64,000 nucleotides of DNA, from positions 16,558-80,557 of the forward strand of contig JAQBRI010000006.1 in the NCBI GenBank assembly GCA_028286585.1. Reading direction: 5' to 3'. Both the position numbers and the translations under genes were made by a program. Every line of letters starts with the position of its first letter. The stretch's first letter is position 1. The stretch comes from Candidatus Kaiserbacteria bacterium. GTDB lineage: Bacteria; Patescibacteriota; Minisyncoccia; Phycocordibacterales; UBA2100. The notes beneath the pieces were generated by a model. It did no database searches and was not told the origin of the DNA. It saw only the letters and a list, made by a program, of their open reading frames with translations. Of this stretch, positions 19,562 through 64,000 are shown piece by piece.

Positions 19562-20455
19562 TTAGATGCTATTGCCTATCGAAAGCGAAAGCGCAAAAGC
19601 CAAAACAGTTACGAGTGAAAATAAAAACACCGACCTTCCCCATTTTTTATCATCTGTCGCATTAAATCCCCGAACAGCAAGCAGGAGCCATAGTACAGAC
19701 ACAAGACCCATGATGACTGCATAGATTTTGCCTTCGTATCCTGAGAGAAATAACCATTCTGAAAATACTCCAAACAGCACAATATAGGCAAGCGTGTGCA
19801 TTTTCGTTGTACGAACCCCATACACCACCGGCAAGACCGGGATGCCCGCATTTTTGTAATCGTCAAATCGATACAATGCTATTCCATATGAATGCGGCAT
19901 CTGCCAAACGACGAGTACTAAAAAAAGAAGTATCGCACCCAAATCAATATGATTTGTGACAGCAAGATATCCCACGACGGGCGGCACAGCTCCTGCAATA
20001 GCCCCGATAAGCGTTCCGTAGACACTCTTTCTTTTACCCCATAAGCTATACACCACTACATAAAAGAAAAGACCTACAAGCGCAACAAAAGTTGTGAGAA
20101 TATTTGTAAATACGAAAAGCACGAATACTCCCACAATTCCAAGAGCCAGTGCGTACAAAAAAATATTTCTCTTGGATATAACACCGCGCACCAGCACACG
20201 CTCTTTTGTGCGCTCCATCCGTGCATCAATATCGCGATCTATATAATTATTTATCACACATCCGCAGGCAATAATAAGTGATATTCCGACTAGAACGATA
20301 AGTAACAAAGTAATATCAAGATGGCCGCGGGTAGCCAAAAAATATCCCCCAATAACATTGATCGCATTACCGTAGATAATGCCCGGTTTTATAACAGAAT
20401 AGTATGCTTTTACTTGAGAGTCGCGAGGCATGATATTAGAGGGCATTTTGGACAT
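19562..20455 (-). CDS. cyoE: protoheme IX farnesyltransferase (heme O synthase, UbiA family)
   Basis: Multi-TM UbiA architecture, NYIDRDIDARMERTKERVL motif region; directly downstream of the quinol oxidase subunits. Confidence 0.85.
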   Translation of the reverse strand: MSKMPSNIMPRDSQVKAYYSVIKPGIIYGNAINVIGGYFLATRGHLDITLLLIVLVGISLIIACGCVINNYIDRDIDARMERTKERVLVRGVISKRNIFLYALALGIVGVFVLFVFTNILTTFVALVGLFFYVVVYSLWGKRKSVYGTLIGAIAGAVPPVVGYLAVTNHIDLGAILLFLVLVVWQMPHSYGIALYRFDDYKNAGIPVLPVVYGVRTTKMHTLAYIVLFGVFSEWLFLSGYEGKIYAVIMGLVSVLWLLLAVRGFNATDDKKWGRSVFLFSLVTVLAFALSLSIGNSI

Positions 20456-20813
20456 TTACCGTGCCGTCTCCCTGCATTGGTACCATGGTACGGCCTGTAA
20501 GATTGTTCATGACCCACAATGATCCAACAAGTAAAATCAGAATGATAACAATAGTAAAAATGAACGCGATAATATTCCAGCGCGCGTGCGATTTTGCGCT
20601 GAGATGTAAGAAACAAATCAGTTGCACAATCTGCTGAGTTACCGCGATCAAAATGATCACACCAGCTGCAACAGCATTTGAAAACATGTGATTAACCACA
20701 ATCATGTACGCTCCCAAGGTGAGTATAATCGACAATACAAAGCCGACTATGTAGCTCGAAAGCGTGCCGTGCGCTGCACCATATTCTGTATCCAATGTAT
20801 TAAAGTTTTCCAT
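20436..20813 (-). CDS. cyoD: quinol oxidase subunit IV
   Basis: 125 aa, three TM helices, operon position after subunit III. Confidence 0.7.
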   Translation of the reverse strand: MENFNTLDTEYGAAHGTLSSYIVGFVLSIILTLGAYMIVVNHMFSNAVAAGVIILIAVTQQIVQLICFLHLSAKSHARWNIIAFIFTIVIILILLVGSLWVMNNLTGRTMVPMQGDGTVNVQNAL

Positions 20814-20822
20814 AGTCCTAGA

Positions 20823-21413
20823 TTATAGTGTTCCCAAAAGGTATACGACGGTAAAGACGAATATCCAAATAATATCAAGAAAGTGCCAGAATATTCCAAG
20901 GGCAGTAAGCTTGCGAAGTATCTGCGGCGAGAGTCCCCTGTCGACAATTTGAATCATGAGGGTAAACATCCACAATAATCCCAAACTTACATGAAGAGCA
21001 TGTGTTCCGACAAGCGTAAAAAATGCCGAAAGAAATCCGCTTCGAGTCCAGCTGATACCTTCGTTCACAAGATGTGAAAACTCATTTATTTCCAATGATA
21101 CGAACGAAAGTCCTAGGAGAATAGTGATGGCAATTAATATAAGTGCAGTGTTTTTGCGATGATGATGCACTGCAAGCATAGTGAGTCCATAGGTAAAGCT
21201 TGAGCTCAAGAGTATGAGTGTTTCGACAAGAACAAAGGGTAGGTTAAAGATGTCTTTAGCTGAAGGTCCACCAAAAGTATTGTTGTGCAAAACGGCATAG
21301 ACAATGAAAAGTGCCGCAAAAAGAAAACAGTCACTCATGATATAGATCCAGAATCCAAAAACTGTTCGCGCATCGGCTTTGAGATGATGATTATGCAATG
21401 TTAAGTCGTTCAT
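20823..21413 (-). CDS. cyoC: quinol oxidase subunit III
   Basis: 196 aa, 5 TM, typical CyoC/QoxC. Confidence 0.85.
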
Positions 21414-23383
21414 ATTGTTTTGTGTCTTCGTGATTCTATAAGTGCGACTGTTTCTGCCGATACAACATATTCTGTCTCCTGATCAAATGATCGGACCATG
21501 ACACTCGCAATGATACCGATAAGTGCCACGGCACAGAGCCATGTAATATGCCATACGATTGCAAATCCAAACACGAGTGCAAAAGCTGCAATAATAAAAC
21601 CGAGCGGTGTATTCTTTGGCATAACGATGTCCTCGTAGGAACTATGCTGCGGCCGCATGTGCGCTTCTCCATATTTCATATCCCAAAAAGCGTGTCTGCC
21701 ATGGACTGTTGGAATATGCGCAAAGTTGTAAAACGGTGGCGGCGATGAAGTCGACCATTCAAGTGTACGACCATCCCACGGATCGCCCGTTAGATCTTTA
21801 TTGTGCTTACGGTCACGGAAACTTACATATAGTTGTATACCCTGGAATACGCCGCCAAGCGCTATGATACAGACGCCTATCGCAGCAATAATCAGAAATG
21901 GCTGCCATCCTGTTGTAATATCATAATGACTCAAGCGCCGAGTCATGCCCATGAGTCCAACGATATAAATTGGCAAAAAAGCGACAAAGAATCCGATGAC
22001 CCAGCACCAAAATGCGTATGTGCCATATTTTTCATTAAGTTTGAATCCAAAGAACTTTGGAAACCAATATGCGAGTCCGGCAAAGTAGCCAAAGATAACA
22101 CCGCCGATGATTGTGTTATGAAAATGCGCAATCAAAAAGAGACTGTTATGCAATTGAAAGTCCGCAGCTGGAATTGCCATCAATACTCCTGTCATCCCAC
22201 CAAACGTGAATGTCGAAATAAATCCCATTGTCCACAACATCGGCGTGGTAAATGTAATGCGGCCGCGGTACATGGTAAACAGCCAGTTGAATATTTTGAC
22301 ACCAGTTGGAATGGCAATGATCATCGTCGCAATACCAAAAAATGCATTCACATTAGCGTCCGCGCCCATCGTAAAGAAGTGATGCACCCACACGATAAAT
22401 GAAAAGAATGTGATAGCGACCGTTGCCCAAATCATCGTGGTATAGCCAAAGAGTTGTTTGCGCGAAAAGACCGGCACCACTTCGGAAAAGATTCCGAATG
22501 CGGGAAGAATCAGAATATACACCTCGGGGTGTCCCCACGACCAGATCAAATTGATATACATCATTGGATTACCACCAAAATCTGCGCTAAAGAAATGCAT
22601 CCCATAAAATCTATCGAGAAACAAAAGTGCAAGCGTGACTGTGAGAATTGGAAATACAATAACCACCAAACTCATCGCCGAAAGCGTCGTCCAAACAAAA
22701 ACCGGCATACGCATCAAGGTCATGCCTGGTGCGCGCATCCGAAGTATGGTGACGAGAAAATTAATACCAGACAAGAGCGACCCTACGCCTGCGATTTGAA
22801 TACACCAAATATAATAATCAACGCCGACACCCGGGCTATACACAAGTTCTGAAAGTGGCGGGTACGCAAGCCAACCCGTGCGTGCAAATTCACCAATCGA
22901 AAGCGACAGATTCAAGAGAAGCGCTCCCGAAACCGCAAGCCAAAGACTAAGCGAATTAACAAACGGAAATGCGACGTCGCGGCTGCCTATAAGAAGAGGC
23001 GTGGCTAGATTAATCAGCCCAAACATGAGCGGCATCGCTACAAAGAAAATCATTATCACGCCGTGCGCAGTAAAAACCTGGTCATAATGATCAGGCGGCA
23101 AAAAACCGTGTGCACTCCCTGCAGAAACTGCCAATTGCCCGCGCATCATTGCAGCATCTATAAATCCACGCACCATCATCACAAATGCGAGGATAAGATA
23201 CATAATTCCTATCCGTTTATGGTCAACTGTGGTAATCCAGTTTTTCCAGAGCCACGTCCAACGATGTTTTACGGTAAGAATACTGAGAACTGCAATAACC
23301 ACGATGCTCATTAAAATGGTTGCGCCAAAAATGATCGGATCATGGGGAAATGCACTCAAGGTCAGGTTGCCAAAAAGATTCAT
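21410..23383 (-). CDS. cyoB: heme-copper quinol oxidase subunit I
   Basis: 657 aa; [20 protein letters not shown]-like motifs of heme-copper oxidase subunit I with the C-terminal extension typical of CyoB. Confidence 0.9.
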
Positions 23384-23386
23384 ATA

Positions 23387-24301
23387 TTATATGCCCCGCA
23401 TATCAGCACTTGTCATGTTCATATCCATCCCATTCATCTGCGTTGAAGGCATCATATATTTCATAATAATTGTATCATAGAGCCCTGATGGAACTTGGGA
23501 ATAAAAGTGTATCTTTTCACTCTCACTTGGTTTAACGAGTGCTTCGTACGTCGAACTGGTAAGTGAATTGTCAGAATTTTGTACTGCGGTAACCCAGGTA
23601 GCGTAATCTTCGGAACTAACCGCTCGAGCAACAAACGTCATGTCCGAAAATCCATTACCGCTAAAGTTTGCCGATGAACCGCGGTAATCACCAATTGTAT
23701 CTGCCGAAAGATTGAGCTGCGTTTGCATGCCAGGCATCGCATAAATTTGTCCGCCTAGCCGTGGTATCCAAAAGGAATTCATTGGGGCATCGGCCGTAAT
23801 AACAAATCGAACGGGAGTATCTTTTGGAAACTCTACAAAATTGAGTGTCGCTATTCCCTCTTTAGGATAAATGAACAACCATTTCCAATTGAGAGCAACT
23901 ACTTCGATCGTCATGGTCGGATTCTCATCGATAATCTGTCGGTACGGATCAAGCTCCTTGGATGAAACCCATGTTATGGCCGCAAGAAGGCAGATAATAA
24001 ATATCGGGATCATCCACCAGACAGTTTCGAGTAAAACACTATGTGACCATTCGGGACTATATTTTGCCGAGGTATTTTCTGCTCTATAACGCCATGCAAT
24101 CACATAACTTAATCCGACGACTGGCACGACTACAAGGAGCATGAGCACAACAGAAATAATAATGAGACTTCGTTCCTGCAAAGCAATTACTCCGTTTGGC
24201 TGGAGGATTCCGAGAGAGTGTCCCAGTGTAAAATAATAGAGAATGCCACAAAAACCGACTGCAAAAATTAATAGTGCGAGAGCTTTGAGCGCAAATTTCA
24301 T
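23387..24301 (-). CDS. cyoA: quinol oxidase subunit II (no CuA ligands)
   Basis: NSFWIPRLGGQIYAMPGMQTQL closely matches the E. coli CyoA region; the Cys/His CuA motif is absent, so it is quinol- rather than cytochrome c-type. Confidence 0.85.
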   Translation of the reverse strand: MKFALKALALLIFAVGFCGILYYFTLGHSLGILQPNGVIALQERSLIIISVVLMLLVVVPVVGLSYVIAWRYRAENTSAKYSPEWSHSVLLETVWWMIPIFIICLLAAITWVSSKELDPYRQIIDENPTMTIEVVALNWKWLFIYPKEGIATLNFVEFPKDTPVRFVITADAPMNSFWIPRLGGQIYAMPGMQTQLNLSADTIGDYRGSSANFSGNGFSDMTFVARAVSSEDYATWVTAVQNSDNSLTSSTYEALVKPSESEKIHFYSQVPSGLYDTIIMKYMMPSTQMNGMDMNMTSADMRGI

Positions 24302-24332: not shown

Positions 24333-25250
24333 TTACCCGACATCTTCGACATCCCATTCATCTTTTTTCAGTCGGCGGATAGCTTCGCTACCCAAACCAA
24401 CAAGTGCAGCAAGGCCGGTCGCGACAGCAAGATATACATCCCAAGAATGTTTCGGTGGCGTCGCCACAGCAACTGAAGCAGTTTGATCTGACTCTGCTGG
24501 AGCACTGGAAACCGTTGTCGTGCCTACGGTTGCCAAATCATTCCAAGAATCAGCAGCAGTGCTTTGCGTCGTTGGTTTTTTCTTTTTCGAAGTCGAAGTT
24601 TTTGCCTTGCCCACCGTCGCATCCTGCGAAGGCTGGGTCGCAGGTTTTTTTGTTATTACTGCCGCAGTCTTGGTAGTTGCTATTACAAACCGAGATGCAA
24701 CAGAAACCTTTGTAGTAAAAGTACCTGGCGAAGGCGCCTGCGAAGTAAATGCCACATGAATGGACGCACGCTGCAGTGAATTACCGTCATTACTTGCACC
24801 ATCTGATTTACTATAGAGTGCGCTCGCGACATCGGTACCTGCACTATTCACAAATGATATGTATGCGCCAGTATTAGGCAGCGAAAATGCTGAAACCATG
24901 ATAGGTACGCCCGTGTCTCCATTCTCAGTCTCAAATGCTTTTTGATTTCTCACAATAAGTGCATGCTGATTTGGTTCTACAAATTCACTACCTGTTTTTA
25001 TAATTACATGATTCTTGCCGCCAATATGCGTTTTTAACGCAGATAAGTCTACCGATAATGTACCGTCGTTATATACCTCGATCCATTCACGATCACTATC
25101 GCTTCCTCTTGGATCGTACATGATTTCTGTAATAATAAGATTCGCATGAGCTACATGGGGAGCTATCAAAATAAGCATCACAAAAACTACTCCCCTTATA
25201 CCCCATACTCTATTTGCTACTCTTTTATGTGTTGTGTTATGACCCCTCAT
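24333..25250 (-). CDS. secreted/cell-surface lamin-tail-domain (LTD) protein with Thr/Ser-rich linker and C-terminal TM anchor
   Basis: N-terminal TM/signal, LIITEIMYDPRGSDSDREWIEVYNDG (LTD signature), low-complexity T/S/K stretch, C-terminal hydrophobic segment. Confidence 0.6.
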   Translation of the reverse strand: MRGHNTTHKRVANRVWGIRGVVFVMLILIAPHVAHANLIITEIMYDPRGSDSDREWIEVYNDGTLSVDLSALKTHIGGKNHVIIKTGSEFVEPNQHALIVRNQKAFETENGDTGVPIMVSAFSLPNTGAYISFVNSAGTDVASALYSKSDGASNDGNSLQRASIHVAFTSQAPSPGTFTTKVSVASRFVIATTKTAAVITKKPATQPSQDATVGKAKTSTSKKKKPTTQSTAADSWNDLATVGTTTVSSAPAESDQTASVAVATPPKHSWDVYLAVATGLAALVGLGSEAIRRLKKDEWDVEDVG

Positions 25251-25262
25251 GACCCCTCTGTT

Positions 25263-27455
25263 TTATGGATTACCAATAATTTTGCGAAGCATTTCTGGCG
25301 AAATATCTGATTCGATGTCGGTTTCCGACTCAGGCGGAAGCATTGTTCGCGGCGGTTGTGTAGTTTGTGTTTGCTGAACGGGTGGCTGGTTTACGGTCAC
25401 ATGCGTCTGTATTATTGTATTCTCGAGTTTAGGTGGGACTACCGCAGCAGGATGCGGTTGGTGAATATGCATGTGTGTATGTTTGTGATGCGATTCCTGA
25501 GGCTTTTGTGTGGGAGCTGGTGTCGGTTGGGTGTTTGGCTTCTTTTGCATTTTTTCACGCAATATTTCTGCAGGAGTTTTAACTCGAGGTGTGGAAGCCG
25601 CAGGAGTAACGGGAGCCGCAGGTTTTGCCCGCGCTGCCTCTATCGCATCTCGAAGTGATGCACGCGGATCGGCTTTTACTGGTGGTGGCACAGATTCCGT
25701 TCTCTCTGCATGCGTATTGGATTGCGCAAACGAACGCTGATCTGTCTTTGTTTCAAAGTTGGTGGTAACTGTATTTCGGTTTACAACGAGCGTCGGCTGA
25801 AAATTAAACGTGGACTTTCTCTCGTCTCTCTGGATGGATACGACTGACGTTGCCGGTCTTGGCTCTACCGGAGTACTTACTTTATTTGTAACCGAACGAA
25901 GTGCGGCAAGCGGAGACTGGCCTTGCTGTTGCGGCGAATTGTTCTGAGAGTAACCTCCTCCCTGTGGGCCATATGTTTTCTTTTTTGCATCTCGAGGAGG
26001 CGCCACAAATTCTGACTGCTTTGCAGCAATATATTGCTCGATATCGGCGCGCGTCCGCGCATATGCAGCACGTGAATGTACAATCACATCATCCTTGTAA
26101 GAAATAACCGGTTTTTCAATAGGCGGAATCGTTTCCGCAGAAAATGGCTGTGAACCCACTCCGTCAATCATGAGTGTGAGGTAAATTTGTCCGAGACCAA
26201 GGTTAACAAGGTCTTCTGCCAAAAAGGTTGGCTCAAAAACAGTCTTTAGCGTTTCGGCGTCAAATGGTCCTACGCGAAACGTAATCAAGGTTCCCACGTT
26301 TCCAAACACTGCATCACGAACAGTTTCCTCCATTTGTTCGATGTACTGGTTGGCAAGCGTGAGTGCTAGTTTGTATTTGCGTGATTCGGAAAGAATATCC
26401 GCAAACGCTTCGTTCATCATCGACTGAAATTCATCAACATAAAAGAAACATCGGGGCAGTTTTGCCATGCGGCTTGGCGGCTCATCAGCGCGGCTCATCG
26501 CAGCGAGATAAATCTTGACCGTAAGCATCGAACCCAACAACGACGCGTTGGTTTCTCCCATGCGGCCTTTAGAAAGGTTGACGATAAATATTTTCTTTTC
26601 ATCCATTGCCTCTCGCAAATTAAATGAAGATTTTGGTTGTCCCACAATATTACGAATCAAAGGATTTGATACGAATTGTCCAATCTTGTTCTGAATCGCA
26701 GGGAGCGCCTCGCGCGTATATGTATCGGTAAAGTTTGCGAATTCGTCGAGCCAAAACGACTTAACGATCGGATCAGTTACCTTTTCGATAACTGCATCAC
26801 GAAAGGTTTTGTTGACCAATAGGCGGTTTACGTCGAGCAAAGTCGAGCCCGGATACTCAAGAAGTGCAAGAAGGGTATTTTGCAATATATATTCCATACG
26901 TGCGCTCCATGCATCAACCCAAATACGCTTGAGCGCGCCCATGAGCCCGGCAACAACGAGGTGACGTTGATCAAAACCGATATCCTCCATGATATTAAAG
27001 CCCATCGGGTTTTCCGTATCAAATGGAGCAAAATAAATAACATCATTGATGCGGTCGTGCGGGACAAAGTCGAGCAACTTTTCAGCGGTCGAACCGTGCG
27101 GATCGATAAATGCGATGCCCTCGCCATGCTGAATGTCCTGGATAGCCATGTTTTCGAGCATGGTTGATTTACCCATACCAGTTTTTCCAATGACGTAGAT
27201 GTGTTTGCCTCGGTCAATTCCACGTATGCCAAACATCTCACGTTTGCCGCGTGTATGCGTTGCCGCAAAATAAGTAATTCTGCGATCATCGTCAACTGCT
27301 GGTTTGTGAGAATTGTCAGCGTTCATACGCAAAGTATAACAGAGGATTATATTTCTTGTGTCAATCGCCCGCACAGTGTGATACCTGTCATTATTGTGTT
27401 GTTGTAGTACTTTCTCCCAAAACCGATCGGAGTGAGCGATATTTGTTGGCGGCAT
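25263..27455 (-). CDS. TraD/VirD4-like type IV coupling-protein ATPase (FtsK/HerA superfamily) with a disordered Pro/Gln/Thr-rich C-terminal tail; start uncertain (alternative Met at 27326)
   Basis: Walker A VIGKTGMGKST, Walker B FFYVDEFQSM, IFIVNLSKGRMGE; C-terminal ~270 aa low complexity. Confidence 0.65.
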   Translation of the reverse strand: MPPTNIAHSDRFWEKVLQQHNNDRYHTVRAIDTRNIILCYTLRMNADNSHKPAVDDDRRITYFAATHTRGKREMFGIRGIDRGKHIYVIGKTGMGKSTMLENMAIQDIQHGEGIAFIDPHGSTAEKLLDFVPHDRINDVIYFAPFDTENPMGFNIMEDIGFDQRHLVVAGLMGALKRIWVDAWSARMEYILQNTLLALLEYPGSTLLDVNRLLVNKTFRDAVIEKVTDPIVKSFWLDEFANFTDTYTREALPAIQNKIGQFVSNPLIRNIVGQPKSSFNLREAMDEKKIFIVNLSKGRMGETNASLLGSMLTVKIYLAAMSRADEPPSRMAKLPRCFFYVDEFQSMMNEAFADILSESRKYKLALTLANQYIEQMEETVRDAVFGNVGTLITFRVGPFDAETLKTVFEPTFLAEDLVNLGLGQIYLTLMIDGVGSQPFSAETIPPIEKPVISYKDDVIVHSRAAYARTRADIEQYIAAKQSEFVAPPRDAKKKTYGPQGGGYSQNNSPQQQGQSPLAALRSVTNKVSTPVEPRPATSVVSIQRDERKSTFNFQPTLVVNRNTVTTNFETKTDQRSFAQSNTHAERTESVPPPVKADPRASLRDAIEAARAKPAAPVTPAASTPRVKTPAEILREKMQKKPNTQPTPAPTQKPQESHHKHTHMHIHQPHPAAVVPPKLENTIIQTHVTVNQPPVQQTQTTQPPRTMLPPESETDIESDISPEMLRKIIGNP

Positions 27456-31475: not shown

Positions 31476-34091
31476 CTATTTTGTAGACAATGTATGTATT
31501 GATTGAGCAAAAGCATCGCCTCTTTCTTCGAAGTTTTTGTACAGACCATAACTTGGTGAAGCACACGAAAGTAAACATGCTCCTCCTTGAGGAGTGTGTG
31601 CATAGGCAAATTGTACCGCCTCGTCCATCGATTCAGTTTCCAAAATGTTGAGTCCTTCTCGCTTGGCAAACATTCGCCGACCGCTTTCAGGAAAAATAAC
31701 TATATTTTTGATTCCTCGTTTTATTATTTCTTGTTCAAGCTCAGTAAAATCATATCCGCGATCATGTCCCCCAAGAAATAGGGCCTGCACGTTTGGCACA
31801 GCTTCGAGCGCAGCAATGGTTGATTCCGGTGTCGTTGAAATGGAATCATCATAGAAACGAATGCCTTTATACTCTCCTACCAATTCAAGACGATGTGGCA
31901 AACTCTTAAAACTTTTAACTGCGGTTAGTATTGCTTCATCAGAAACACCTAACAGGCGTGCGACTGTCACCGCTCCTCTTACATTTGTTTTGTTGTGCAT
32001 TCCAAGCAAAGGAATCGCTTCGTCCGAAAACGGCAGTGTTTCAACATACGGAACACTTGTTGCAGAAGTTTCTGTTGTCCACGCTGACAATGCGGCATAT
32101 TCGTCGTTGTAAACGTAGTAGTCGGTTGTTTTTTGGAACATGATAATGCGTTTCTTTGCCTCGTGATACGCCTTTTCAGATCCGTGATAATCCATATGGT
32201 CAGAAAAGAGTGTAGTAACAAGCGCAATGTGCGGTGAAAATTCACAGTCATCAAGCTGATAACTGGACAGTTCAATTACCGCCACCTGATTTGGTGAAGT
32301 ATGAGATTCCAAAACAGAGAGCATGGGTACACCAATGTTACCCACGAGAACGCTCGGCATATTCTCTGCAGTCAACATAGAATGAATCAGGGACGCGGTG
32401 GTGCTTTTGCCCTTACTACCTGTTACACCAACCGTAATGCCTTTGAAACGCGAGAAAAATATATTGGTAGCAGTCGTGTAGTGTGCAGTGATTTTTTCTT
32501 TTGGAATGCCGGCTGTTTTTACCACAATATCGTAGTCATGCTGTTTTTCCAGATATTGAGGATCTTCGGACTGATCGGCGTGTGCGATCTGGAGTTGCGG
32601 ATATTTTGAACGCAAAAATTCTTCGGTCGTTTTACCTTCTCGTGCATAACCAAGCAAGAGTACAGATTCCATCCCTGCAAAGCGAAATCGCTGCGGTACC
32701 GAGGAAGCTGGTGCAACTTTTCGAACCTCTTGCACCAATGCCTCACCATCTGTAATGCGATCTGCAAAAGATGTAACAACCGCACTTTCTGCATAGATTG
32801 CACGAACCAGATGGAGCGCAGCGCATGCTTCGTCAAATGTACCGACACAATCAAATGGCTTCATCGATCCAAACCCAAGAATATCTGCAAAAACAGTAAG
32901 CAGGGCGCGATCGTCGAGCAAATTGCGTCCAAAAATACTCACCAACTGATCTTTTTCGATATAGGGAGCAAGCATTAAAAATACAAATGCACATTTAGGA
33001 CATTCGCAGCACCACATACTTCCCGGTCTGCCCAAGGGATCGATACGAAATTTTCTGTTACAACTGGTAAACACAGAAAAATACTGCGGGTACCGCGCAA
33101 AAAGTTCGGCTATTCGTATTTCATAAAGCGGACGCACAATTGAAAAATATCGCACGCTCGGACTGAGGTAGTTTTTTGTATAGCGAGTAAACATGTTTTC
33201 AAATTCAAGCGATTTACTCCACTGGTGATTAATCTGCTCACCATAATGATCGACATTACCAAAATTACTACTCCATTCGTTGCCTGTCACAACATATGAA
33301 AAGTCGTACAGAAGTGCAGCAGTATAGCCCAAAAATGCATACACAGCCGAAATAGGAATATGACCCTTAAAGCTTCCCGGCAGCACGTCAAAAACCTGCG
33401 GATCAAGTCTGCGCACAATATGATTGAGTGGAATGTTTGCTACGGCGCAGACATTTTCTGCAATGTCATGTTTTGCATATGTTTCTATAACAAATCCTTC
33501 GGAGGATATTTCCTCTGCACGTAGCAGCTCCACCGCAACCACTGAGTCTTTGCCTCCCCCAATCCCGACAAGTGCACGCTCTTGAGTGGAGACGTCTTCT
33601 GCAGGCGCTGGTGTAGTTTGAGTGAACGGAAATTGAATATATCTTAGATCGATATTGTTGCGGTACGCAAATTCACCAAGACCTTTGCGATACACGGTGC
33701 TCCAAAATTCACTCTGTTCCTGCGTCAGTAAGTACGGCATGCGTATATCTTTGGGACAATATAGTTTGTAGTAACTAATACCCAGCATGAGATGGAGCGA
33801 GTCGAGCAACCGCTCAAACAGCTCCGAGGAAATTCGAACAGTATCAAAAGGATGTGGAAATGTAACCGATTCTACAAATCTTCGAGGTTCGCTATGTGCG
33901 AACCCTATTTCATACACAAAAGACGCTACCAGTTCATCTGGATTAAAGAATCGTTCAACGTAAGAAAAGTAAACAGGCTCGGGCATACCACAGTATGCCC
34001 GATTTTGCTGCCTCAACCAAGTAGTCTCGGCAGCTGATTTGTGATCGAAGTTGCGCAAACAAATGGGAGGCGTATAGTGCAAATACTTCAT
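31476..34091 (-). CDS. murD: fusion of an N-terminal PP-loop ATP-pyrophosphatase-like domain (with Cys cluster) to UDP-N-acetylmuramoylalanine--D-glutamate ligase
   Basis: One uninterrupted 871-codon frame. C-terminal ~400 aa: VLLLGYAREGKT Rossmann-like domain then ITVGVTGSKGKSTT and DHMDYHGS Mur ligase motifs. N-terminal ~470 aa: ALVGIGGGKDSVVAVELL (SGGxDS PP-loop) and SMWCCECPKC. Confidence 0.8.
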   Translation of the reverse strand: MKYLHYTPPICLRNFDHKSAAETTWLRQQNRAYCGMPEPVYFSYVERFFNPDELVASFVYEIGFAHSEPRRFVESVTFPHPFDTVRISSELFERLLDSLHLMLGISYYKLYCPKDIRMPYLLTQEQSEFWSTVYRKGLGEFAYRNNIDLRYIQFPFTQTTPAPAEDVSTQERALVGIGGGKDSVVAVELLRAEEISSEGFVIETYAKHDIAENVCAVANIPLNHIVRRLDPQVFDVLPGSFKGHIPISAVYAFLGYTAALLYDFSYVVTGNEWSSNFGNVDHYGEQINHQWSKSLEFENMFTRYTKNYLSPSVRYFSIVRPLYEIRIAELFARYPQYFSVFTSCNRKFRIDPLGRPGSMWCCECPKCAFVFLMLAPYIEKDQLVSIFGRNLLDDRALLTVFADILGFGSMKPFDCVGTFDEACAALHLVRAIYAESAVVTSFADRITDGEALVQEVRKVAPASSVPQRFRFAGMESVLLLGYAREGKTTEEFLRSKYPQLQIAHADQSEDPQYLEKQHDYDIVVKTAGIPKEKITAHYTTATNIFFSRFKGITVGVTGSKGKSTTASLIHSMLTAENMPSVLVGNIGVPMLSVLESHTSPNQVAVIELSSYQLDDCEFSPHIALVTTLFSDHMDYHGSEKAYHEAKKRIIMFQKTTDYYVYNDEYAALSAWTTETSATSVPYVETLPFSDEAIPLLGMHNKTNVRGAVTVARLLGVSDEAILTAVKSFKSLPHRLELVGEYKGIRFYDDSISTTPESTIAALEAVPNVQALFLGGHDRGYDFTELEQEIIKRGIKNIVIFPESGRRMFAKREGLNILETESMDEAVQFAYAHTPQGGACLLSCASPSYGLYKNFEERGDAFAQSIHTLSTK

Positions 34092-34331
34092 GTGGAAGTT
34101 GGGTACTCACCCGTTTCGTCGAAATTACGACGAAATAAGGAAAAATTCCCATACTGTGCCGCAGCGGTAATGCTCTGACTTGCTCGTCGTAGTCTATAAG
34201 ATTAAGGCTGGGTCCAAGAAAATGAGACGAGTCCGATCTTCATGAGGTTCGCATTAAACGCGAGTACCCGAGCAGGATTGGCACCAGATAGTGCCATTTT
34301 CCAAAACCTGCTCAACAAGCAGGCTTTTTTT

Positions 34332-34907
34332 ATGAAAACCAAATACTACATACTTCACTCGCTTTTAGTTGTCGCACTTATCGCGATAGTGACTGTCATT
34401 ATTTGGCATTCAAAAACAACAACACAATCCTCTTTTGCCACATCAACATCTGTAGCAACATCGGCAACAGAAAGCACATCTTCAAAATCATTAATACATT
34501 CTTCGACTGAGACCGTGCCAGTTCAGGCGAAGGTGGCTGCAAAGACCGAGGTTACGCCGCAAGAAACATCTGCAACATCGAGTGCGACAACGAACGCGAC
34601 GTCTACCCCTGAGAAAAATCCCGCGCTTTTTGCCCATCTTGTGATTGGATCACAATCATACGATCTTCCGATTCACGAGGACGAAACACTTCTTGATGCA
34701 ATGCAGGCGCTTCAATCATCCACTTCTTTTGACTATTCTGGGCGGCAGTACACAGGACTAGGGTTCTTTGTTATGTCTATCAACGGCAAGGCGGCCGCGG
34801 ATGGATTTAACTGGATGCTCTATGTTGATGGTAGGCCGTCGGAGTATGGTGCGAGTGCTCTTATTATTAAAACAGGTCAAAAAATAGAATGGAAATATGA
34901 AAAATAA
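34332..34907 (+). CDS. membrane-anchored DUF4430 (transcobalamin beta-domain-like) protein; start taken at MKTKYY
   Basis: N-terminal TM, Ser/Thr-rich linker, C-terminal [33 protein letters not shown] matches the DUF4430 core (W-x-Y-x-V-N/D-G...DGD..W.Y). Confidence 0.55.
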   Translation: MKTKYYILHSLLVVALIAIVTVIIWHSKTTTQSSFATSTSVATSATESTSSKSLIHSSTETVPVQAKVAAKTEVTPQETSATSSATTNATSTPEKNPALFAHLVIGSQSYDLPIHEDETLLDAMQALQSSTSFDYSGRQYTGLGFFVMSINGKAAADGFNWMLYVDGRPSEYGASALIIKTGQKIEWKYEK

Positions 34908-36909
34908 ATTATTCGGTGCGATTATTGTAAGCATTTTTGGATTATTAATACCAGCATTTTCGTTTGCAGACACTGCAACGATAACACTCCGCGTGGGCTC
35001 TGTTACAACAGGACCATACACCATTACGTTACCTGATTTGAGCGCAACCACAACGGCAACAACCACAGCCGTTACTCCAACAGCAGGCGGAACACCAATC
35101 GATATCCCAGCATTGAGTGTTCTTGCAAATTTGGTTGGACTAGACGCTACGACAGGCGACTTTGATATAACCGATCTGCAGTATTCATCGACGTACAGCT
35201 CCTTTTATCTACGGTGTATCTCGGTGCCGAGTGTTTCTAGCTCGCCCCAGTGTGATAACTGGCAATATACCGTGAATGGTTTTGGTCCTAGTGTAGGTTC
35301 TGACGTAACAACGCTTCACAATGGAGATAACGTGTACGTCTATTTTGGCTATCCACGTTCAGTCACCCTTTCAACCACTAGTACGGCAATTGGAAATTCG
35401 TTTACTGCAACGACACAAGCCTACGATCCAGCTACAAATTCGTTCACTCCGATTACAGGAGTTACTATAGGCGCGACCCAACCAAATCCAAGCAATCCAT
35501 ATTCGCCAATAGAGATTGCTACATCACCTGTCGACACAAATGGGCAAGCAATCATAACAGTAAATGCAACTGGCACGTATCAGGTTGGTATTAAAGAGGA
35601 TTATTATTTTCCAACAACTGATATTACGATAACCGATGCTCCTGCAACTACAACTCCTGTAACAGGAGGCGGAGGCAGCGGCCCGATTGGAATTACTCAT
35701 ACTCCGTTTAATGTTCCTCTTGCAGTAAGTTATCTTGTCTCACAACAAAACCCTGATGGCTCGTTTGGGAATGATCTTTATAGCGACTGGGGCGCACTAG
35801 CACTTGCAGCTACAAATGCCCCGACTCTTTCGACAATGAAGTCATACATGACCACGCATGTCGAAACCTATAACAGTGTTACCGATTACGAACGACACGC
35901 CATGGCACTTGAAGCACTTGGTATCAACCCGTACACGGGCTCAAAAACCGACACTATCAGTCCTATTCTTGCAGCATTTGATGGCACGCAGATCGGAGAC
36001 TCAAACCTCGTAACTGATGACATCTTTGCAATCTTTGCGCTTACTCACGCGGGATATAATTCAAGCGATACGATTATCAAAAAAGAAGCGGCATTTATTT
36101 TGTCGAAGCAACTTCCTAACGGATCATGGGAAGGCAGTGTCGATGTTACCGCTGCAGCTATGCAGGCACTTGGTCCATTGTTTGATATTCCGGGGGTTAA
36201 CCGCCAGCTTGGTCCTGCAATCGCCTACATTACAGGAATAGAACAGCCAACCGGTGGATGGAATAATATTGACTCAACAAGTTGGATGGTAACGACAATC
36301 AACACATTCAACAGTTTCCATGTGGGCCAGCCAAGTATTTGGAACAGTTCACTTGGATACTTTCCTATAGACGCGCTAGGGAGCGCTCAGCAATCCGACG
36401 GAGCAGTTCGCCCGGTAAGTGACTCGGCAAATGCACGAGTATGGAGTACAAGTTACGCGGTAGTAGCAGCATCGGACATGGATTGGGTTAGATTATTACA
36501 GCAGTTTCCTAAACCAATTCCTAGTGTAGGCAGTAGTGGAATCAGTGTTGCTTCATCAACCACTTCGACAAGCTCAGACCAGGCAACCTCAACGGCGACC
36601 AGCACTTTGCCAGTTGCAACAACTACACCAATTACCGTAAGTACTTCAACAGCCACTTCGACAACCCCGATAGATGGACAAGTACTTGGCGTTTCCACTT
36701 CGACTGTTCCTACAACACCTCACCCTAAACCAGTAGTTATAAAAAAGAAGCCGGTTGTAGTACATCCTGTTCCAAAGGTCCCAGCAGCAACATCTTCGAC
36801 ATCGACTAAAACGAATACTGTCGGATCAAATCAAACTGGTTCGGTTATCACTCCCAGCCCTGCGGGATTCTGGCAGTGGATTGGAAGTTGGTTTAAGAAT
36901 TTGTTCTAG
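34897..36909 (+). CDS. secreted DUF4430 domain + prenyltransferase/squalene-cyclase-like alpha/alpha-toroid repeat protein with Ser/Thr-rich tail and C-terminal hydrophobic anchor
   Basis: Signal peptide [24 protein letters not shown]; [31 protein letters not shown] (DUF4430); repeats [37 protein letters not shown] (QW-type prenyltransferase repeats). Confidence 0.65.
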
Positions 36910-36921
36910 TTCTTGTTCATA

Positions 36922-36957
36922 AACAAAACAGCTCGGCAGATGCCGAGCTGTTTTGTT
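36922..36957. terminator. bidirectional rho-independent terminator (AAAACAGCUCGGCAGAUGCCGAGCUGUUUU)
   Basis: Perfect inverted repeat flanked by A- and T-runs between the converging + gene and tRNA-Leu. Confidence 0.75.
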
Positions 36958-43146: not shown

Positions 43147-43147
43147 T

Positions 43148-43476
43148 ATTTCGCTGCGCCTATAAGCCGGGTTCTGTGCATGCAGATTCAAAATCTGCAC
43201 CGATGATCATATATCTGCGATGTGTGTTGCCACACACCTGTAGCGGCTCTCCGCGTCGAGCGCGGCACGGCCTTGCACGCGAGTAGGAATTTTGCCGTTT
43301 CACTCTTACCTTTCGATAAGCCTCACCCCAAAGGGTGCCTAGCCTCTCGGCATTGGCGTCTCTGCTCGCATCCCTATCCTTACGGATGATGGGCGTTACC
43401 CACTACTTGTTACCTATGATGGCTACGTGCCCGGACTTTCCTCTATCAATAATGACAGCGACCATCCAACGCAGAA
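43148..43476 (-). ncRNA. rnpB: RNase P RNA (bacterial type), not represented in the ORF track
   Basis: Minus strand carries the P4 halves GGAAAGUCCGGGC (from 43429-43441) and ACAGAACCCGGCUUA (from 43163-43177) about 250 nt apart. P1 pairing CUGCG/CGCAG. Own promoter and terminator. Confidence 0.75.
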
Positions 43477-43480
43477 TTGT

Positions 43481-44224: not shown

Positions 44225-46609
44225 TTAGATAACTTCACAGGTTCCTCCGGCACATGCAAGTTCACGCTTTTGTTCGGTTTCGTCTGTTCGCTCATAAATA
44301 ACAAGCTTTGAGAAGTCGATTTTTGGAATGTTTGCGAGCATGCGGTCATAGGTTTTTTTGTCGATTTCTTCGTATGGCGCGAGGCGATATACGTGATTTG
44401 ATCGTGGCAAGAAAGAGAGTCCGCCGATGATTTCCCAATGTTTCTGGACCCAGGCAACGACATCAATCCATTCATCTTCGCCAATAGAAATAGTTGCCGA
44501 AGGATTGTGTTCAGTAAAGTTTTCCTTGAGCATCCTCCAGTATTCGAGCTGTTCGATTGCAGAGATATCGTTTTTGAATATCGATCCGCTCGGTGCAGCA
44601 ACAGGAAATTCGAGAACGTAGGTGTTTGCGCTATCAAACGTCTGCCCTACTTCTGGATGATGCGGTACTCCCTGATCTCGCATCATTTTGTACAACGAGT
44701 CGGTTGCAGAGATGCGAACACGTCGGATGTAATACTTTGAGTTGCGAGGGTGCATACCGGATGAGCAGTCGAATGTCTGAGAAACGGTTCCGGATGGTTT
44801 AACACAGGTAACGGCACTTGATTGCGGCACTCCAAATCGCTTTGCATACTGCGCATTGGTCTTAACAGAAAGGTCTCGCATCTTGCGCATCGTTGCTGCG
44901 TTTCGCACTGCAGGAGAATCCCATTGGCCAGTAATTGAGACGCCTAGCAAACGCTCATCGTTACAGTTGTCGGTCCACTCCTTTGAGATAAAACTAAACT
45001 TTGTGAGTGTTGACTGGTAGGTTCCGAGAATTGTTGCGAGGCGAATCTTGCGCAAGAGAGACTTTTCGGTGTCGCCTGCTCGAGCGATTACTTCTGAGAG
45101 ATTACAAAACTGTTTTGACTGCAAAATGATCTCACCGCACGGATTACAACCGAGCTGTCCGAGCTTGCCCTTGCCATATTTTTTCTCAAGATATGAAATG
45201 CGGCGCTTTGGAAGAGTTGTTGCAAGCGATCCTCGGTTAAAGATACCTCGCTCTCCTGTACCACTCTTCATAAGAGCTACCCATTCATCCATGAGTTCGG
45301 TGTTTGATGGCTTTTGCTCGTACACGGCAGAGTTGTTGGCAACAGCGCGGTGTCCGTCTGTAAGATAAAATTGTCCTTTCTTTGAATCACGAACTTCGAC
45401 ATCATCAAGATCAGAAAGACTGATCATTGCGGTGCGGCGCACTCCGCCAGCTACAACACACTCACCAATCTTACAAATAATGTCGTGGGCATCGATGTTG
45501 CGAAGACGTCGTCCCTGACGAGTAAGAATACGCTCACGAGCAAACGCCAAAAGGTTTCGCAACGGATCAGGACCTGATGCCTTGCCTCCCATTGTCTTAA
45601 GACGAGCTCCCGCAGGACGTATCAATGAAAAATCAAAATCAACATCGTCACCGCCGTACCAGGTCTTTAATCCATGTGTAAGCGCTTCACACCAGCCTTC
45701 TTTTGAGTCCCCTACAACATGAACTGGGAGCTTCTTTCCTGACTGTTTTTGAATCTGAGGAAGTTGTTGAATGTTTTGTGATTCGACTGCATATCCGACA
45801 CCACAACCCATCATCGAAAGGTACATAATTTCTGCAAAATCTTCGAGTTTGATTGGCGCGGTAAACGTACAGTTATACAAACATGAGTTGCACTTGCGAG
45901 CAGCCGGGCCCGAAAACTGCATCGCACGCATACTAGGCATGACTTCTTGTTTGAGGATCGCAGTTTGTACTTCTTTGTATTCTTTGTCTGTGAGCTTGGT
46001 GCCGAGATTTTCACGCATAAAATCCACGTAACGCTGTACCGTCTCTACCCATGTCTCGCGGCGCTGTTCGGATTCGATCCACTTGGCATAGCTTCGAGTG
46101 TACACAAATTCGCCCAATTGGTTGCCAGAAAAATATTCGGCACTTTCTGCAGCAAGCTTACGGACGTGCTCTGGCACTTCACCCTGCTCTTCTCGAACTC
46201 GAGATCGGTTAGCGCGGTACAAAATGTATGCCTTGGCAGTCGTTACATAGTCGGCAAGCATGAGCTGACGCTCAACCTCATCCTGACATCCTTCCACTGT
46301 AGGCAAAAAGCCCTTGTACGTCTTTGCAATACGCATCAACTCAGATGAGACCTTGTGTGCAACGAGTTCAGCCTCGGTGACTGATCCTTCGTTACTCACG
46401 AGCATCGCTTTGTGTATTGCCCGTGCTACTTTTTCAAAATCAAAAGCCAATACGCGGCCATCGCGTTTTTGGATTTGGGGAACATATTTTTGATAAATGC
46501 GTATTGAAGAACGATCAACCGACGGAATTATTGCCGGTGTCTTACGCCCCCCCCTTTCTGTTACAGTGGTACTTGTCATGCGCGTCACGTTAGCGGTTAA
46601 TATGTTCAT
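44225..46609 (-). CDS. nrdJ: class II (adenosylcobalamin-dependent) ribonucleoside-triphosphate/diphosphate reductase
   Basis: 794 aa; ATP-cone-like N-terminus, GCNPCGEI and NLSEV catalytic-site motifs characteristic of NrdJ; SD GAGAGGAG 5 nt upstream of ATG. Confidence 0.9.
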   Translation of the reverse strand: MNILTANVTRMTSTTVTERGGRKTPAIIPSVDRSSIRIYQKYVPQIQKRDGRVLAFDFEKVARAIHKAMLVSNEGSVTEAELVAHKVSSELMRIAKTYKGFLPTVEGCQDEVERQLMLADYVTTAKAYILYRANRSRVREEQGEVPEHVRKLAAESAEYFSGNQLGEFVYTRSYAKWIESEQRRETWVETVQRYVDFMRENLGTKLTDKEYKEVQTAILKQEVMPSMRAMQFSGPAARKCNSCLYNCTFTAPIKLEDFAEIMYLSMMGCGVGYAVESQNIQQLPQIQKQSGKKLPVHVVGDSKEGWCEALTHGLKTWYGGDDVDFDFSLIRPAGARLKTMGGKASGPDPLRNLLAFARERILTRQGRRLRNIDAHDIICKIGECVVAGGVRRTAMISLSDLDDVEVRDSKKGQFYLTDGHRAVANNSAVYEQKPSNTELMDEWVALMKSGTGERGIFNRGSLATTLPKRRISYLEKKYGKGKLGQLGCNPCGEIILQSKQFCNLSEVIARAGDTEKSLLRKIRLATILGTYQSTLTKFSFISKEWTDNCNDERLLGVSITGQWDSPAVRNAATMRKMRDLSVKTNAQYAKRFGVPQSSAVTCVKPSGTVSQTFDCSSGMHPRNSKYYIRRVRISATDSLYKMMRDQGVPHHPEVGQTFDSANTYVLEFPVAAPSGSIFKNDISAIEQLEYWRMLKENFTEHNPSATISIGEDEWIDVVAWVQKHWEIIGGLSFLPRSNHVYRLAPYEEIDKKTYDRMLANIPKIDFSKLVIYERTDETEQKRELACAGGTCEVI

Positions 46610-49929: not shown

Positions 49930-50632
49930 ATTCAGAAACCTACTGCTTGTTGTTCACAAGTAGTGAGATACTAGCAAAAAAATCACAACTTTGCTACTAT
50001 TTCAACCAGCGTGCGGATTAGATCATTTTTCAACCTCGCACGCATGGAGGAATGCATGCAAAAGGGTAACAATAAGGTTGCAACAACATCCACCCAGAAG
50101 AGCAACTGCGTCAAGTCTGGCGCACGCCGTGAGCGGCGCAAAGAAGAGCGTGAGCGCCGCGTGGCCAACCTCAGCCACCCCCGACCCGAGACCTACGTAC
50201 ATTCTGGGAGTCAGCAATAGCAAGTTCTAATCTCGAACGAGATCACGGCGCGATCCGAGTTAGGGTCGCGCTTTTCATATATATTTTCCAACACAAAAAG
50301 CCCTTACCATAAATACTGTGGTAGGGCGATTTTGTATTGTTTACGAAATAGAAATTAAAACAAGTAACGACAAAACTGAACACACCCCGAGGGTATTTCT
50401 TTTTTCTAAAACCGATTACGGTTAAGAAAAAATGGGCACTCTTTTGTTCCGTCCAAACATCCGTCTTTCCGGACCGTCCAGTGCATTGAAAAATGATAGC
50501 ACTATCATTACACACAGTATTACTACCATATGACTACACTTTGATGCCGTGTAGTTCAGCCTTCCGTGGTCAATTGAGCCACAGAAATCGACAGCAGATT
50601 TTAATCTCGAAAGAAAAAATCTTTCCTTTTTT

Positions 50633-52092
50633 TGGAATGAATCCACGAGCAGCTTCCGCTACCCGTGCCTTGTTACGACTTACTCTTTGTCATTGAGCTT
50701 ACCTTGGTACGTCACATGGACGTGCTTCGGGCACTCCCAACTCCCCTGAGTTGACGGGCGGTGAGTACAAGGCTTGAGAACGTATTCACCGTGGTGTGGC
50801 TGACCCACGATTACTAGCGATTCCGGCTTCATGAGGTCGGGTTGCAGACCTCAATCCGAACTGGCGCCGCTTTTCAGGATTTGCTCCATCTTACGATATT
50901 GCGTCCCTTTGTAACGGCGATTGTAGCGCGTGTGCAGCCCAAGATATCAGAGGGACATGCTGACTTGGCGTCATCCTCACCTTCCTCCCCCGTGAGGGGG
51001 CAGTCTCGCCAGACACTTATAACTGGCAACGAGGGTTGCGTTCGTTACCCCACTGAAGGGAACGGTTCAAACCACGAACTGACGACAGCCATGCATCACC
51101 TGTCCTACACCCTCGAAGGCTTCCTCGGTTTCCCGAGGCGTGCAGTAGGATGTCTAATCTTGGTAAGGTTCTTCGCTTAGCTACGAATTAAGCCACACGC
51201 TCCACCGCTTGTGCAAGCCCCCGTCTATTCCTTTGAGTTTTAATCTTGCGATCGTACTACCCAGGCGGCCGACTTAACGCGTTAGCTTCGCCTCAAAGAG
51301 GGTCGATACTCCTTAAAGCCAGTCGGCATCGTTTAGGGCGTGGACTACCGGGGTATCTAATCCCGTTCGCTACCCACGCTTTCGTGCTTGAGAGTCAGGA
51401 ACGCACCAGTACATTGCCTTCGCTTTCGGTGTTCCCCATGATATCAACGGATTTCACCCCTACACCATGAGTTCCATGTACCTCTTACGCCCTCGAGTTA
51501 TACCGTTTCGCCCGCGATTCCGTGGTTGAGCCACGAGATTTAACAGACGACTAATATAACCTCCTACGCACTCTTTACGCCCAGTAAATCCGGGTAACGC
51601 TTGGGGCCTCTGTATTACCGCTCCTGCTGGCACAGAGTTAGGAGCCCCTTATTCATGAAGTAACGTCAAAAATTCCTCCTTCATAAAAGGTGTTTACGCG
51701 CCGAAGCGCTTCATCCACCACGCGGTATCGCTCGATCAGGCTTTCGCCCATTGTCGAATATTCTCGGCTGCAGCCCTCCGTAGAGGTATCGGCCGTGTCT
51801 CAGTCCGATCGGTGGGGGTCAGCCTCTCAGCTCCCCTAAACGTCGTAGCCTTGGTGAGCCATTACCTCACCAACTAGCTGATATTGCGCAGGCCGCTCCA
51901 GAAGCGAAAAATCTTTACCCTTGCGGGACTATCGGGAATTACCTCACCTTTCGATGAGCTATGCCCGACTTCTGGGTACGTTCCTACGTGTTACTACCTC
52001 GTCTGCCGGTTGCCCTTGCGGGCCCCCTTGACTTGCATGCCTTATCCATACCGCCAGCGTTCACCCTGAGCTAGGATCAAACTCTAAGTTAA
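50633..52092 (-). rRNA. rrs: 16S ribosomal RNA (divergent, CPR-like), about 1.46 kb, no large insertions
   Basis: Minus strand reads AGAGUUUGAUCCUAGCUCAG at the 5' end (52066-52085). GUGCCAGCAGGAGCGGUAAUAC, AUUAGAUACCCCGGUAGUCC, CCGCCCGUCAACUCA and AAGUCGUAACAAGG near the 3' end. Confidence 0.9.
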
Positions 52093-63857: not shown

Positions 63858-64000
63858 CCACCAGTATCAATACAAAAACCCTCCATTTCTGAAGGGTTTT
63901 GTATTTTCAAGTACTTTATGTTGGCGCCAATCTACTCTCGCCTTGCGACTACCATCGACTCAAGAGAGCTTAACTGCCGTGTTCGGAATGAGAACGGGTG

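Follow-up and report, generated by a model that had tools for sequence, protein, structure and literature searches.

How do Patescibacteria capture vitamin B12 (cobalamin, Cbl) and supply their class II ribonucleotide reductase (RNR), for which no description was found in the searchable literature? Bacteria of the candidate phyla radiation have minimal genomes, and their cofactors must come from outside. The question is raised by a locus in a 64-kb stretch of a Candidatus Kaiserbacteria metagenome-assembled genome, which was scanned as a whole and is called the window hereafter. Two adjoining plus-strand genes of this window, termed here gene 1 and gene 2, encode a membrane-tethered protein with a DUF4430 domain and a secreted protein in which such a domain is combined with an alpha/alpha toroid. 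A first-pass annotation, made from the sequence alone, had read the pair as a surface module for corrinoid capture. In the present analysis this reading is supported by a riboswitch, by conserved gene neighbors, and by the fold of the beta domain, and the predicted function that we favor, with a probability of roughly 0.75, is B12-regulated corrinoid capture at the cell surface in the service of acquisition. The region 34097-36957 would accordingly be read as a self-contained, B12-repressed two-gene operon.

Both open reading frames (ORFs) were present as first described (Table 1), and they overlap by 11 nt (ATGAAAAATAA). The family is far larger than chance would produce: a word-indexed search gave at least 384 homologues, an exhaustive one 534 clusters at E <= 1e-30, and the locus was found in at least 334 species-level genomes. 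For neighborhood counts, the best 80 of 334 matching loci were used, one genome per species; all 80 belong to Patescibacteria (Kaiser-, Nomura-, Adler-, Lipton-, Doudna-, Falkow-, and Magasanikbacteria, and Paceibacterota).

The regulatory RNA upstream of the gene pair

An unannotated element, the aptamer of which ends 51 nt before the gene 1 ATG, is almost certainly a cobalamin riboswitch homologue. A covariance model (R1), built from 44 relatives with the window and its closest relatives left out, found this element as its sole match in the window (45.6 bits, E ~1e-12), the next best having an E of 0.2. Over the species-level loci, R1 detected one element each in 66 of the 80, always 5' of the gene pair. 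Moreover, of 86 sequences, 60 carry the signature GTGCCGC..GGT ... CCGAGCAGG exactly once and in this position, the window (34156-34276) being one of them. One riboswitch helix covaries, with 47 double-change cells, a value matched by none of 500 shuffles; RNAalifold on a MAFFT alignment recovered the structure in part, and the outer helix changes register among sequences.

The cobalamin riboswitch clan of Rfam (CL00101) comprises RF00174, RF01482, and RF01689. Among 13 related loci scanned with Rfam, five reached the gathering score, L037 (58.8 bits) and L007 (51.4 bits) for the adenosylcobalamin (AdoCbl) family, with a threshold of 50, and L058 (41.8 bits), L052 (38.1 bits), and L076 (37.2 bits) for AdoCbl-II, with a threshold of 36.5. 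All Rfam matches in the scanned relatives lie on the coding strand, directly 5' of the small DUF4430 gene that corresponds to gene 1. Genes controlled by B12 riboswitches are biosynthesis genes, transporters, or B12-independent isozymes, and we place the pair in the transport class, since secreted non-enzymatic binders fit no other riboswitch-controlled class.

Between aptamer and gene 1 there is a terminator hairpin, the T7 run of which ends directly before the ATG at 34332. The segment CCTGCTC (34307-34313) is complementary to GAGCAGG (34270-34276) in the conserved 3' element of the aptamer, and this alternative pairing would serve as an antiterminator. The same layout is kept in relatives, where the 5' arm of the terminator is complementary to CCGAGCAGGA and 51 of 60 have a T-run; the arm can pair with the invariant CCGAGCAGG element instead of closing the terminator. 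As judged from these pairings, the platform has the layout of a ligand-induced terminator, and we infer OFF logic. Downstream of gene 2, an inverted repeat is likely the terminator that closes the two-gene unit; a simple terminator scan of the window did not list it.

The regulatory RNA also bears on the start of gene 1. The deposited annotation (JWO50_279, 221 aa) opens the gene at 34242, and the extension 34242-34331 overlaps the 3' end of the riboswitch and the terminator. Homologues have lengths of 191-199 aa; because these match the 191 aa of the shorter ORF, the ATG at 34332 was taken as the start, and 34242, which crosses the regulatory RNA and is without homologue support, was rejected.

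In 12 of the 80 loci, among them L040, L044, L047, L049, L050, L054, L062, and L065, a helix-turn-helix gene of the ArsR family stands directly 3' of the toroid gene. The riboswitch is absent in eight of these 12 and present in 62 of the 68 others; in one lineage, a protein regulator of the ArsR family may have taken the place of the RNA.

Conserved gene neighbors and a candidate carrier

As the first-pass annotation had stated, the window encodes a B12-dependent RNR (nrdJ) and no B12 biosynthesis. The nrdJ product matches TIGR02505 (RTPR) with 307.7 bits, just under the cut-off of 340, and carries ATP-cone, RNR_Alpha, and B12-dependent RNR insertion domains; of the tetrapyrrole methylase family the window has a single member, which encodes RsmI and no corrin enzyme.

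The neighborhoods of relatives are more telling than that of the window. Neighboring ORFs were clustered without prior labels, cluster representatives were then annotated, and neighbors were counted on the same strand within 5 kb of the toroid gene. In 68 of the 80 loci the toroid gene is directly preceded by a small DUF4430 homologue of the same orientation. After it, the commonest partner is a DUF6580 membrane protein (36 loci; e.g., L033 5881-6426 and L079 8472-9041); nrdJ is found in 29 loci and a PduO-type cobalamin adenosyltransferase in 17 (PF01923, E 1.6e-43; TIGR00636 above cut-off). The homologues are therefore seen at cobalamin loci, and not at the S-layer or cellulosome loci that the first-pass annotation had named as the contrary case.

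At least four gene orders hold the pair beside nrdJ, pduO, and DUF6580. Genes in one direction are arranged as DUF6580, nrdJ, pduO, riboswitch, pair, and ArsR; as nrdJ, DUF6580, riboswitch, pair, thioredoxin-like, and DsbB-like; or as riboswitch, pair, and DUF6580. In the Kaiserbacteria type, to which the window belongs, murC and murL-murD run divergently from the riboswitch and the pair. Where the switch sits after nrdJ and pduO, these two genes would escape B12 repression and the capture genes would not.

DUF6580 (PF20221) is a family of no assigned function. The best PDB match of its profile is a 182-aa chain named 'Membrane protein' in 6FNP (E 1.7e-7), the entry of the ECF-CbrT vitamin B12 transporter, where ECF denotes energy-coupling factor (Santos et al., 2018; PMC5997447). 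From the identity of the entry and the length of the chain, this match is read as the CbrT S-component, and DUF6580 is a candidate for a solitary B12 carrier. A motif scan for ATPases with an ATP-binding cassette (ABC) found none up to 7 kb from the pair in any of 85 loci.

That corrinoids are bound at the surface and not imported, the pair serving for sequestration or storage (for example, withholding them from competitors or from the host cell) or for sensing, is unlikely in our view. Repression by a cobalamin riboswitch is a signature of acquisition genes, DUF6580 is co-transcribed 3' of the toroid gene, downstream of the switch, in about 10 loci, and the link to pduO and nrdJ points to delivery to an intracellular enzyme. 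The case for binding without import draws on the window, which has no transporter gene, on the lack of ABC ATPases near the pair, and on 41 of the 80 loci in which DUF6580 was not detected (flanks up to 10 kb); haptocorrin, a carrier with a scavenging or protective role, offers a precedent.

Within the acquisition reading, a more daring possibility, which we hold tentatively and would not favor at present, is that Patescibacteria take up B12 by a three-tier route without an ABC or ECF ATPase, the tethered beta domain and the stalked beta-plus-toroid protein capturing the corrinoid as their alpha and beta parts assemble on it, and then passing it to a solitary CbrT-like S-component (DUF6580). 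If true, this would be the first S-component-type carrier served by extracellular binding proteins, and the pair would represent, in free-living bacterial form, what animals gained later as transcobalamin and intrinsic factor.

Two further neighbors were recorded. Thioredoxin-like and DsbB-like genes lie 3' of the pair in 10-11 of the 80 loci (e.g., L066, L069, L080, and L083). Two invariant cysteines lie in the beta domain of the toroid protein (C107 and C119 in gene 2 of the window) and, together with these neighbors, suggest a dedicated disulfide-forming system for the secreted pair. Furthermore, a gene for a CofE-like F420-0:gamma-glutamyl ligase (PF01996, E 4.7e-43) is convergent and directly follows the toroid gene in 16 of the 80 loci, which are of the Kaiserbacteria type (e.g., L010 6008-6718); it is not at the corresponding position in the window. 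It has no evident B12 link, and its adjacency was judged to be synteny only.

Architecture of the two predicted surface proteins

The gene 1 protein consists of a hydrophobic transmembrane helix (residues 4-27), a low-complexity Ser/Thr linker (about residues 28-98), and a beta domain. DUF4430 cores had been suspected in both proteins, and the hidden Markov model (HMM) of Pfam (PF14478) found them: in gene 1 it covers the domain over the full profile with 52.3 bits (E 7.8e-14; cut-off 23.8), and in gene 2 it lies just over the cut-off, with 25.9 bits. In an AlphaFold2 model of gene 1 from 60 homologues, the domain has a predicted local distance difference test (pLDDT) value above 94. In the PDB, the top 15 Foldseek matches of this model are all beta domains from transcobalamin, haptocorrin, or intrinsic factor. 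The highest-placed standalone beta domain, at rank 2, is the apo form of human TC-beta, the beta domain of transcobalamin (5NO0), with a target-normalised TM-score of 0.81, a root-mean-square deviation of 1.6 A, and 22% identity. Thereafter comes 3U7Z, a bacterial DUF4430 structure, and then a gap of more than 100-fold in E-value to generic beta-grasp proteins. The modeled beta domain is transcobalamin-like in a specific sense. By sequence, a profile of gene 1 relatives reached bovine transcobalamin in the PDB at an E of 0.4 only, and single-sequence PDB searches with the gene 1 and gene 2 proteins gave noise only.

The gene 2 product, identical to NCBI protein JWO50_280, was modeled from 78 homologues with a mean pLDDT of 82.8. 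The AlphaFold2 model has a beta domain (26-150), a beta-sandwich (154-246), the toroid (270-540), a disordered stalk (549-654), and a terminal helix (658-669). The DUF4430 domain and toroid of the first-pass annotation are borne out; the Ig-like domain between them had been missed. The toroid carries four repeats of the type Q-x-x-(D/N/T)-G, as had been noted, and is assigned because of the model and the family profile, the HMM matches of the window protein itself being below their cut-offs (SQHop_cyclase_C, PF13243, 20.7 vs. 26.1 bits; TIGR01787, 25.3 vs. 322.7 bits). When 59 gene 2 relatives were compared with Pfam, SQHop_cyclase_C was found in 57, DUF4430 in 56, Cobalamin_bind in 27, and a TED domain in 24; the Cobalamin_bind matches are weak, the best having an E of 3.2e-6. 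Family-wide conservation is seen in the toroid cavity at W298, D330, R333, W411, W463, Q498, and W516.

At its C-terminus, the gene 2 protein had been thought to have a hydrophobic anchor. Instead, there is an aromatic, amphipathic helix of about 14-18 residues, conserved family-wide with the consensus F-x4-W-x2-I-x-S-F-F-x2-L-F, which by hydropathy is too short for a classical transmembrane helix and is not an LPXTG signal either. The extended motif, (G/N)-F-(F/L)-x2-(I/L)-W-x2-(I/V)-x-S-F-F-x2-L-F, lies behind the stalk and a Q-T-A-A-A stretch, and may act as an anchor at the interface, as a signal for sorting, or as a peptide for docking. With a transmembrane helix in gene 1 and a signal peptide in gene 2, both proteins, by prediction from sequence and models, are secreted or displayed at the surface.

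Table 1. Coordinates of the gene pair, its flanking elements, and nrdJ in the window
Feature	Position	Strand	Basis
Cobalamin-riboswitch-like aptamer, unannotated	34097-34280	+	Covariance model R1 from relatives
Riboswitch conserved core ACTGTGCCGCAGCGGTAAT	34153-34171	+	
Riboswitch conserved core GAGTCCGAT	34229-34237	+	
Riboswitch conserved core CCCGAGCAGGA	34267-34277	+	
Terminator hairpin CCTGCT-CAACA-AGCAGG (34307-34323), then C + T7	34307-34331	+	Terminator scan, sequence reading
Gene 1, membrane-tethered transcobalamin-beta-like (DUF4430/SLBB) protein, 191 aa	34332-34907	+	Pfam, AlphaFold2, Foldseek
Gene 1 beta domain (residues 99-191)	34626-34904	+	
Gene 2, secreted protein, 670 aa	34897-36909	+	Pfam, NCBIfam, AlphaFold2, Foldseek, family profile
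Gene 2 Sec-type signal peptide (...PAFSFA/DT, cleavage at the slash)	34897-34968	+	
Gene 2 DUF4430/SLBB domain	34972-35346	+	
Gene 2 Ig-like domain	35356-35634	+	
Gene 2 alpha/alpha toroid	35704-36516	+	
Gene 2 Ser/Thr/Pro stalk	36541-36858	+	
Gene 2 conserved aromatic C-terminal helix (residues 655-670)	36859-36906	+	
Inverted repeat CAGCTCGGC-AGAT-GCCGAGCTG, then TTTTGTT	36929-36957	+	Read directly from sequence
nrdJ, class II AdoCbl-dependent RNR	44225-46609	-	TIGR02505, Pfam

In the mechanism that we propose, the riboswitch with its terminator and antiterminator would shut the operon at sufficient intracellular cobalamin and permit read-through under B12 limitation. Gene 1 would then display a transcobalamin-type beta domain on a flexible, membrane-anchored Ser/Thr stalk, and the secreted gene 2 protein would bring a second beta domain and the toroid on a long stalk of its own. 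In transcobalamin, B12 is held between the alpha and the beta domain. In the present proteins, as in that carrier, the beta domain of gene 1, gene 2, or both would catch the corrinoid first, with the toroid closing over it afterward; the cofactor would then pass to a membrane carrier, which in relatives is most likely the CbrT-like DUF6580 and in the window organism one whose gene must lie beyond the window. A PduO-type adenosyltransferase would make AdoCbl for NrdJ within the cell. TC-beta on its own binds Cbl and cobinamide, and it joins TC-alpha only in the presence of Cbl (Bloch et al., 2017; PMC5599065), which is a precedent for such a split system.

Several findings weigh against corrinoid capture. 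The family profile of gene 2 matched squalene-hopene cyclase among PDB sequences (E 1.7e-13), and assignment of the toroid to the transcobalamin family by sequence was dropped, since this search found terpene cyclases and no transcobalamin; on the gene 2 protein of the window, Cobalamin_bind (PF01122) gave no match at E <= 1. By Foldseek, the complement TED domain/alpha2-macroglobulin, drimenyl-diphosphate synthase, and farnesyltransferase beta rank above transcobalamin, which is among the significant fold matches at rank 34 (E 1e-4), amid many toroid families. The likeness to transcobalamin that had been put forward for both building blocks is thereby specific for the beta domain, and the toroid appears transcobalamin-like in a generic sense only. 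The relative placement of beta domain and toroid is not fixed by the gene 2 model, which has a predicted template-modelling score of 0.53. Furthermore, Rfam called no riboswitch in the window at the gathering threshold, and in a permissive scan the element scored best as AdoCbl-II with 16.2 bits, against a threshold of 36.5; the low score is explained by two lineage-specific insertions, which some relatives have as well; one adds a hairpin to a loop, the other about 60 nt to the variable arm. In the window, nrdJ lies 7.3 kb from the pair, on the opposite strand and in a separate transcription unit, so that its proximity is weak evidence alone and gains meaning through the tight nrdJ-pduO-pair operons of relatives. 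Neither DUF6580 nor PduO was found in the window by tblastn, and no btuCDF, ECF, or ABC ATPase genes were seen there (motif scan for ABC). The 80 loci share phylogeny, and counts among them overstate independent events. Finally, no binding data for any bacterial DUF4430-toroid protein were found in the searchable literature.

The same toroid matches, with squalene-hopene cyclase and drimenyl-diphosphate synthase as the best in profile searches, could be taken to indicate an enzyme, a terpene cyclase or prenyltransferase-like protein acting on an envelope lipid, or else the pair could be structural or adhesive and unrelated to B12. In addition, relatives have further domains of the Ig, cadherin-like, or HYR kind, as is typical of proteins at the surface, and in about 20 loci the pair adjoins murC, murD, and murI. 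Both ideas appear very improbable to us. Secretion takes the protein away from isoprenoid diphosphate substrates, and the DxDD motif is lacking at the aligned site, where the window protein has SVDV(TA) and squalene-hopene cyclase has DVDD(TA), in a weak alignment that is indicative only; the family consensus at this position is S-x-D-x-T-A-A-A. A functional link to the mur genes was rejected, since these are divergent and the riboswitch points the opposite way. Moreover, an enzymatic or structural role would leave the riboswitch and the nrdJ/pduO context unexplained.

Known systems and meaning of the locus

Systems of this kind were already predicted, by computation, by Burroughs, Balaji, Iyer, and Aravind (2007, Biol Direct; PMC1796856), and the locus fits their description. 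These authors reported that secreted SLBB domains of bacteria are joined to alpha/alpha toroids on either side and with Ig-fold insertions, and that a second paralogous SLBB gene is in the operon; they predicted B12 scavenging without a B12 pathway and derived animal transcobalamin from transfer of such a fusion out of Gram-positive bacteria (PMC1796856). Here, too, the toroid is C-terminal to the SLBB domain, as in their Bacillus example, an Ig-fold is inserted, the operon has a further gene for a small SLBB protein, and a role in B12 scavenging is predicted. In contrast, their systems are 'generally' accompanied by CbiO-like ATPase and CbiQ-like genes, whereas the partners in Patescibacteria, which were outside their sampling, are a riboswitch, nrdJ, pduO, and a solitary CbrT-like gene, with no ABC ATPase nearby. 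The tether also differs, being an N-terminal transmembrane helix in gene 1 and the aromatic C-terminal helix in gene 2, not LPXTG.

With mammalian transcobalamin, intrinsic factor, and haptocorrin, the pair shares the two building blocks and the close superposition on TC-beta. Unlike in these carriers, where a single chain has the toroid N-terminally, then a linker and the beta domain, gene 2 runs in reverse from beta through Ig to alpha, a tethered beta protein is added, the toroid does not appear specific to transcobalamin by sequence or fold rank, and the proteins would be attached to the cell instead of being soluble carriers with receptors.

In Lactobacillus delbrueckii, CbrT belongs to an nrdJ-cbrS-cbrT-pduO cluster (Santos et al., 2018; PMC5997447). 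The relatives of the window locus resemble this cluster in having a CbrT-like S-component (DUF6580), nrdJ, and a PduO adenosyltransferase; they differ in the addition of two transcobalamin-like surface proteins and a riboswitch and in having no ECF module nearby, and the window itself is without the CbrT-like and pduO genes.

A related arrangement raises the possibility that the pair captures heme or another tetrapyrrole and not cobalamin. In Lactobacillus sakei Lsa1836-1840, alpha-like (Lsa1840) and beta-like (Lsa1839) modules are likewise found on two adjacent secreted proteins, homologous to the present pair, in an operon with a complete ECF module that has been implicated in heme uptake (bioRxiv 10.1101/864751). 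The window contains a complete cytochrome o-type quinol oxidase cluster (19562-24301, minus strand) with a UbiA-family CyoE, read as heme O synthase, small subunits, CyoB (TIGR02843, 1079.8 bits, above the equivalog cut-off), and CyoA. The organism therefore needs heme, and the cluster implies a need for a quinol donor as well, neither of which such reduced genomes are expected to make. However, heme capture seems quite improbable, since the regulator 5' of the pair is of the cobalamin riboswitch clan, the conserved neighbors are nrdJ, PduO, and a CbrT-like protein rather than heme genes, and every one of the solved folds nearest to the beta domain binds cobalamin; hemin, moreover, did not compete against Cbl in ECF-CbrT (PMC5997447). 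Compared with the L. sakei system, the regulation and neighbors here are specific to cobalamin, and gene 2 keeps a beta domain of its own.

The corrinoid-capture reading further has a counterpart in BtuG and BtuH of Bacteroides (PMC6143338), which are riboswitch-regulated, high-affinity corrinoid binders at the surface that feed a transporter, binding being predicted for the present pair. Those proteins are outer-membrane lipoproteins that work with the TonB-dependent BtuB. To our knowledge, Patescibacteria have no outer membrane. BtuG is a beta-propeller, and the folds of BtuG and BtuH are not known to be related to those of the pair.

Other genes of the window were recorded as observations in their own right. 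A protein of 871 aa (31476-34091, minus strand) fuses a MurL-like epimerase (NF041275, 347 bits, residues 42-447, below the equivalog cut-off) to MurD (TIGR01087, 267.6 bits, residues 477-865); the MurL-like UDP-MurNAc-L-Ala-L-Glu epimerase and MurD are separate adjoining genes in the relative L004, and the fusion suggests a MurD2/MurL route to peptidoglycan D-Glu as a single polypeptide. A TraG/VirD4-like type IV coupling protein (25263-27455, minus strand; TrwB_AAD_bind, T4SS-DNA_transf) is joined by an adjoining gene (24333-25250, minus strand), the counterpart of which in L001 has a lamin-tail domain (LTD); the two are flanked by the oxidase cluster and rsmI. At 50631-52092 (minus strand) there is a lone 16S rRNA gene, and a 5S fragment (63919-64000, minus strand) is found 12 kb off at the window edge; as Rfam called no 23S rRNA between them, the rRNA genes are considered unlinked. 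A class A RNase P RNA (43147-43477, minus strand; 112 bits) lies between murJ and nrdJ.

In brief, what is new with respect to the 2007 prediction is the Patescibacteria lineage, the near-universal cobalamin riboswitch, the tethering architecture, and the presence of nrdJ, pduO, and CbrT-like partners instead of CbiO and CbiQ. The locus provides the first regulatory evidence for that prediction, by tying bacterial DUF4430-plus-toroid proteins to cobalamin sensing. For annotation, functions are proposed for two entries listed as 'hypothetical' or 'prenyltransferase repeat', one start codon is corrected, and DUF6580 is flagged as a probable B12 carrier. For Patescibacteria, the locus represents a concrete and testable candidate for B12 capture.

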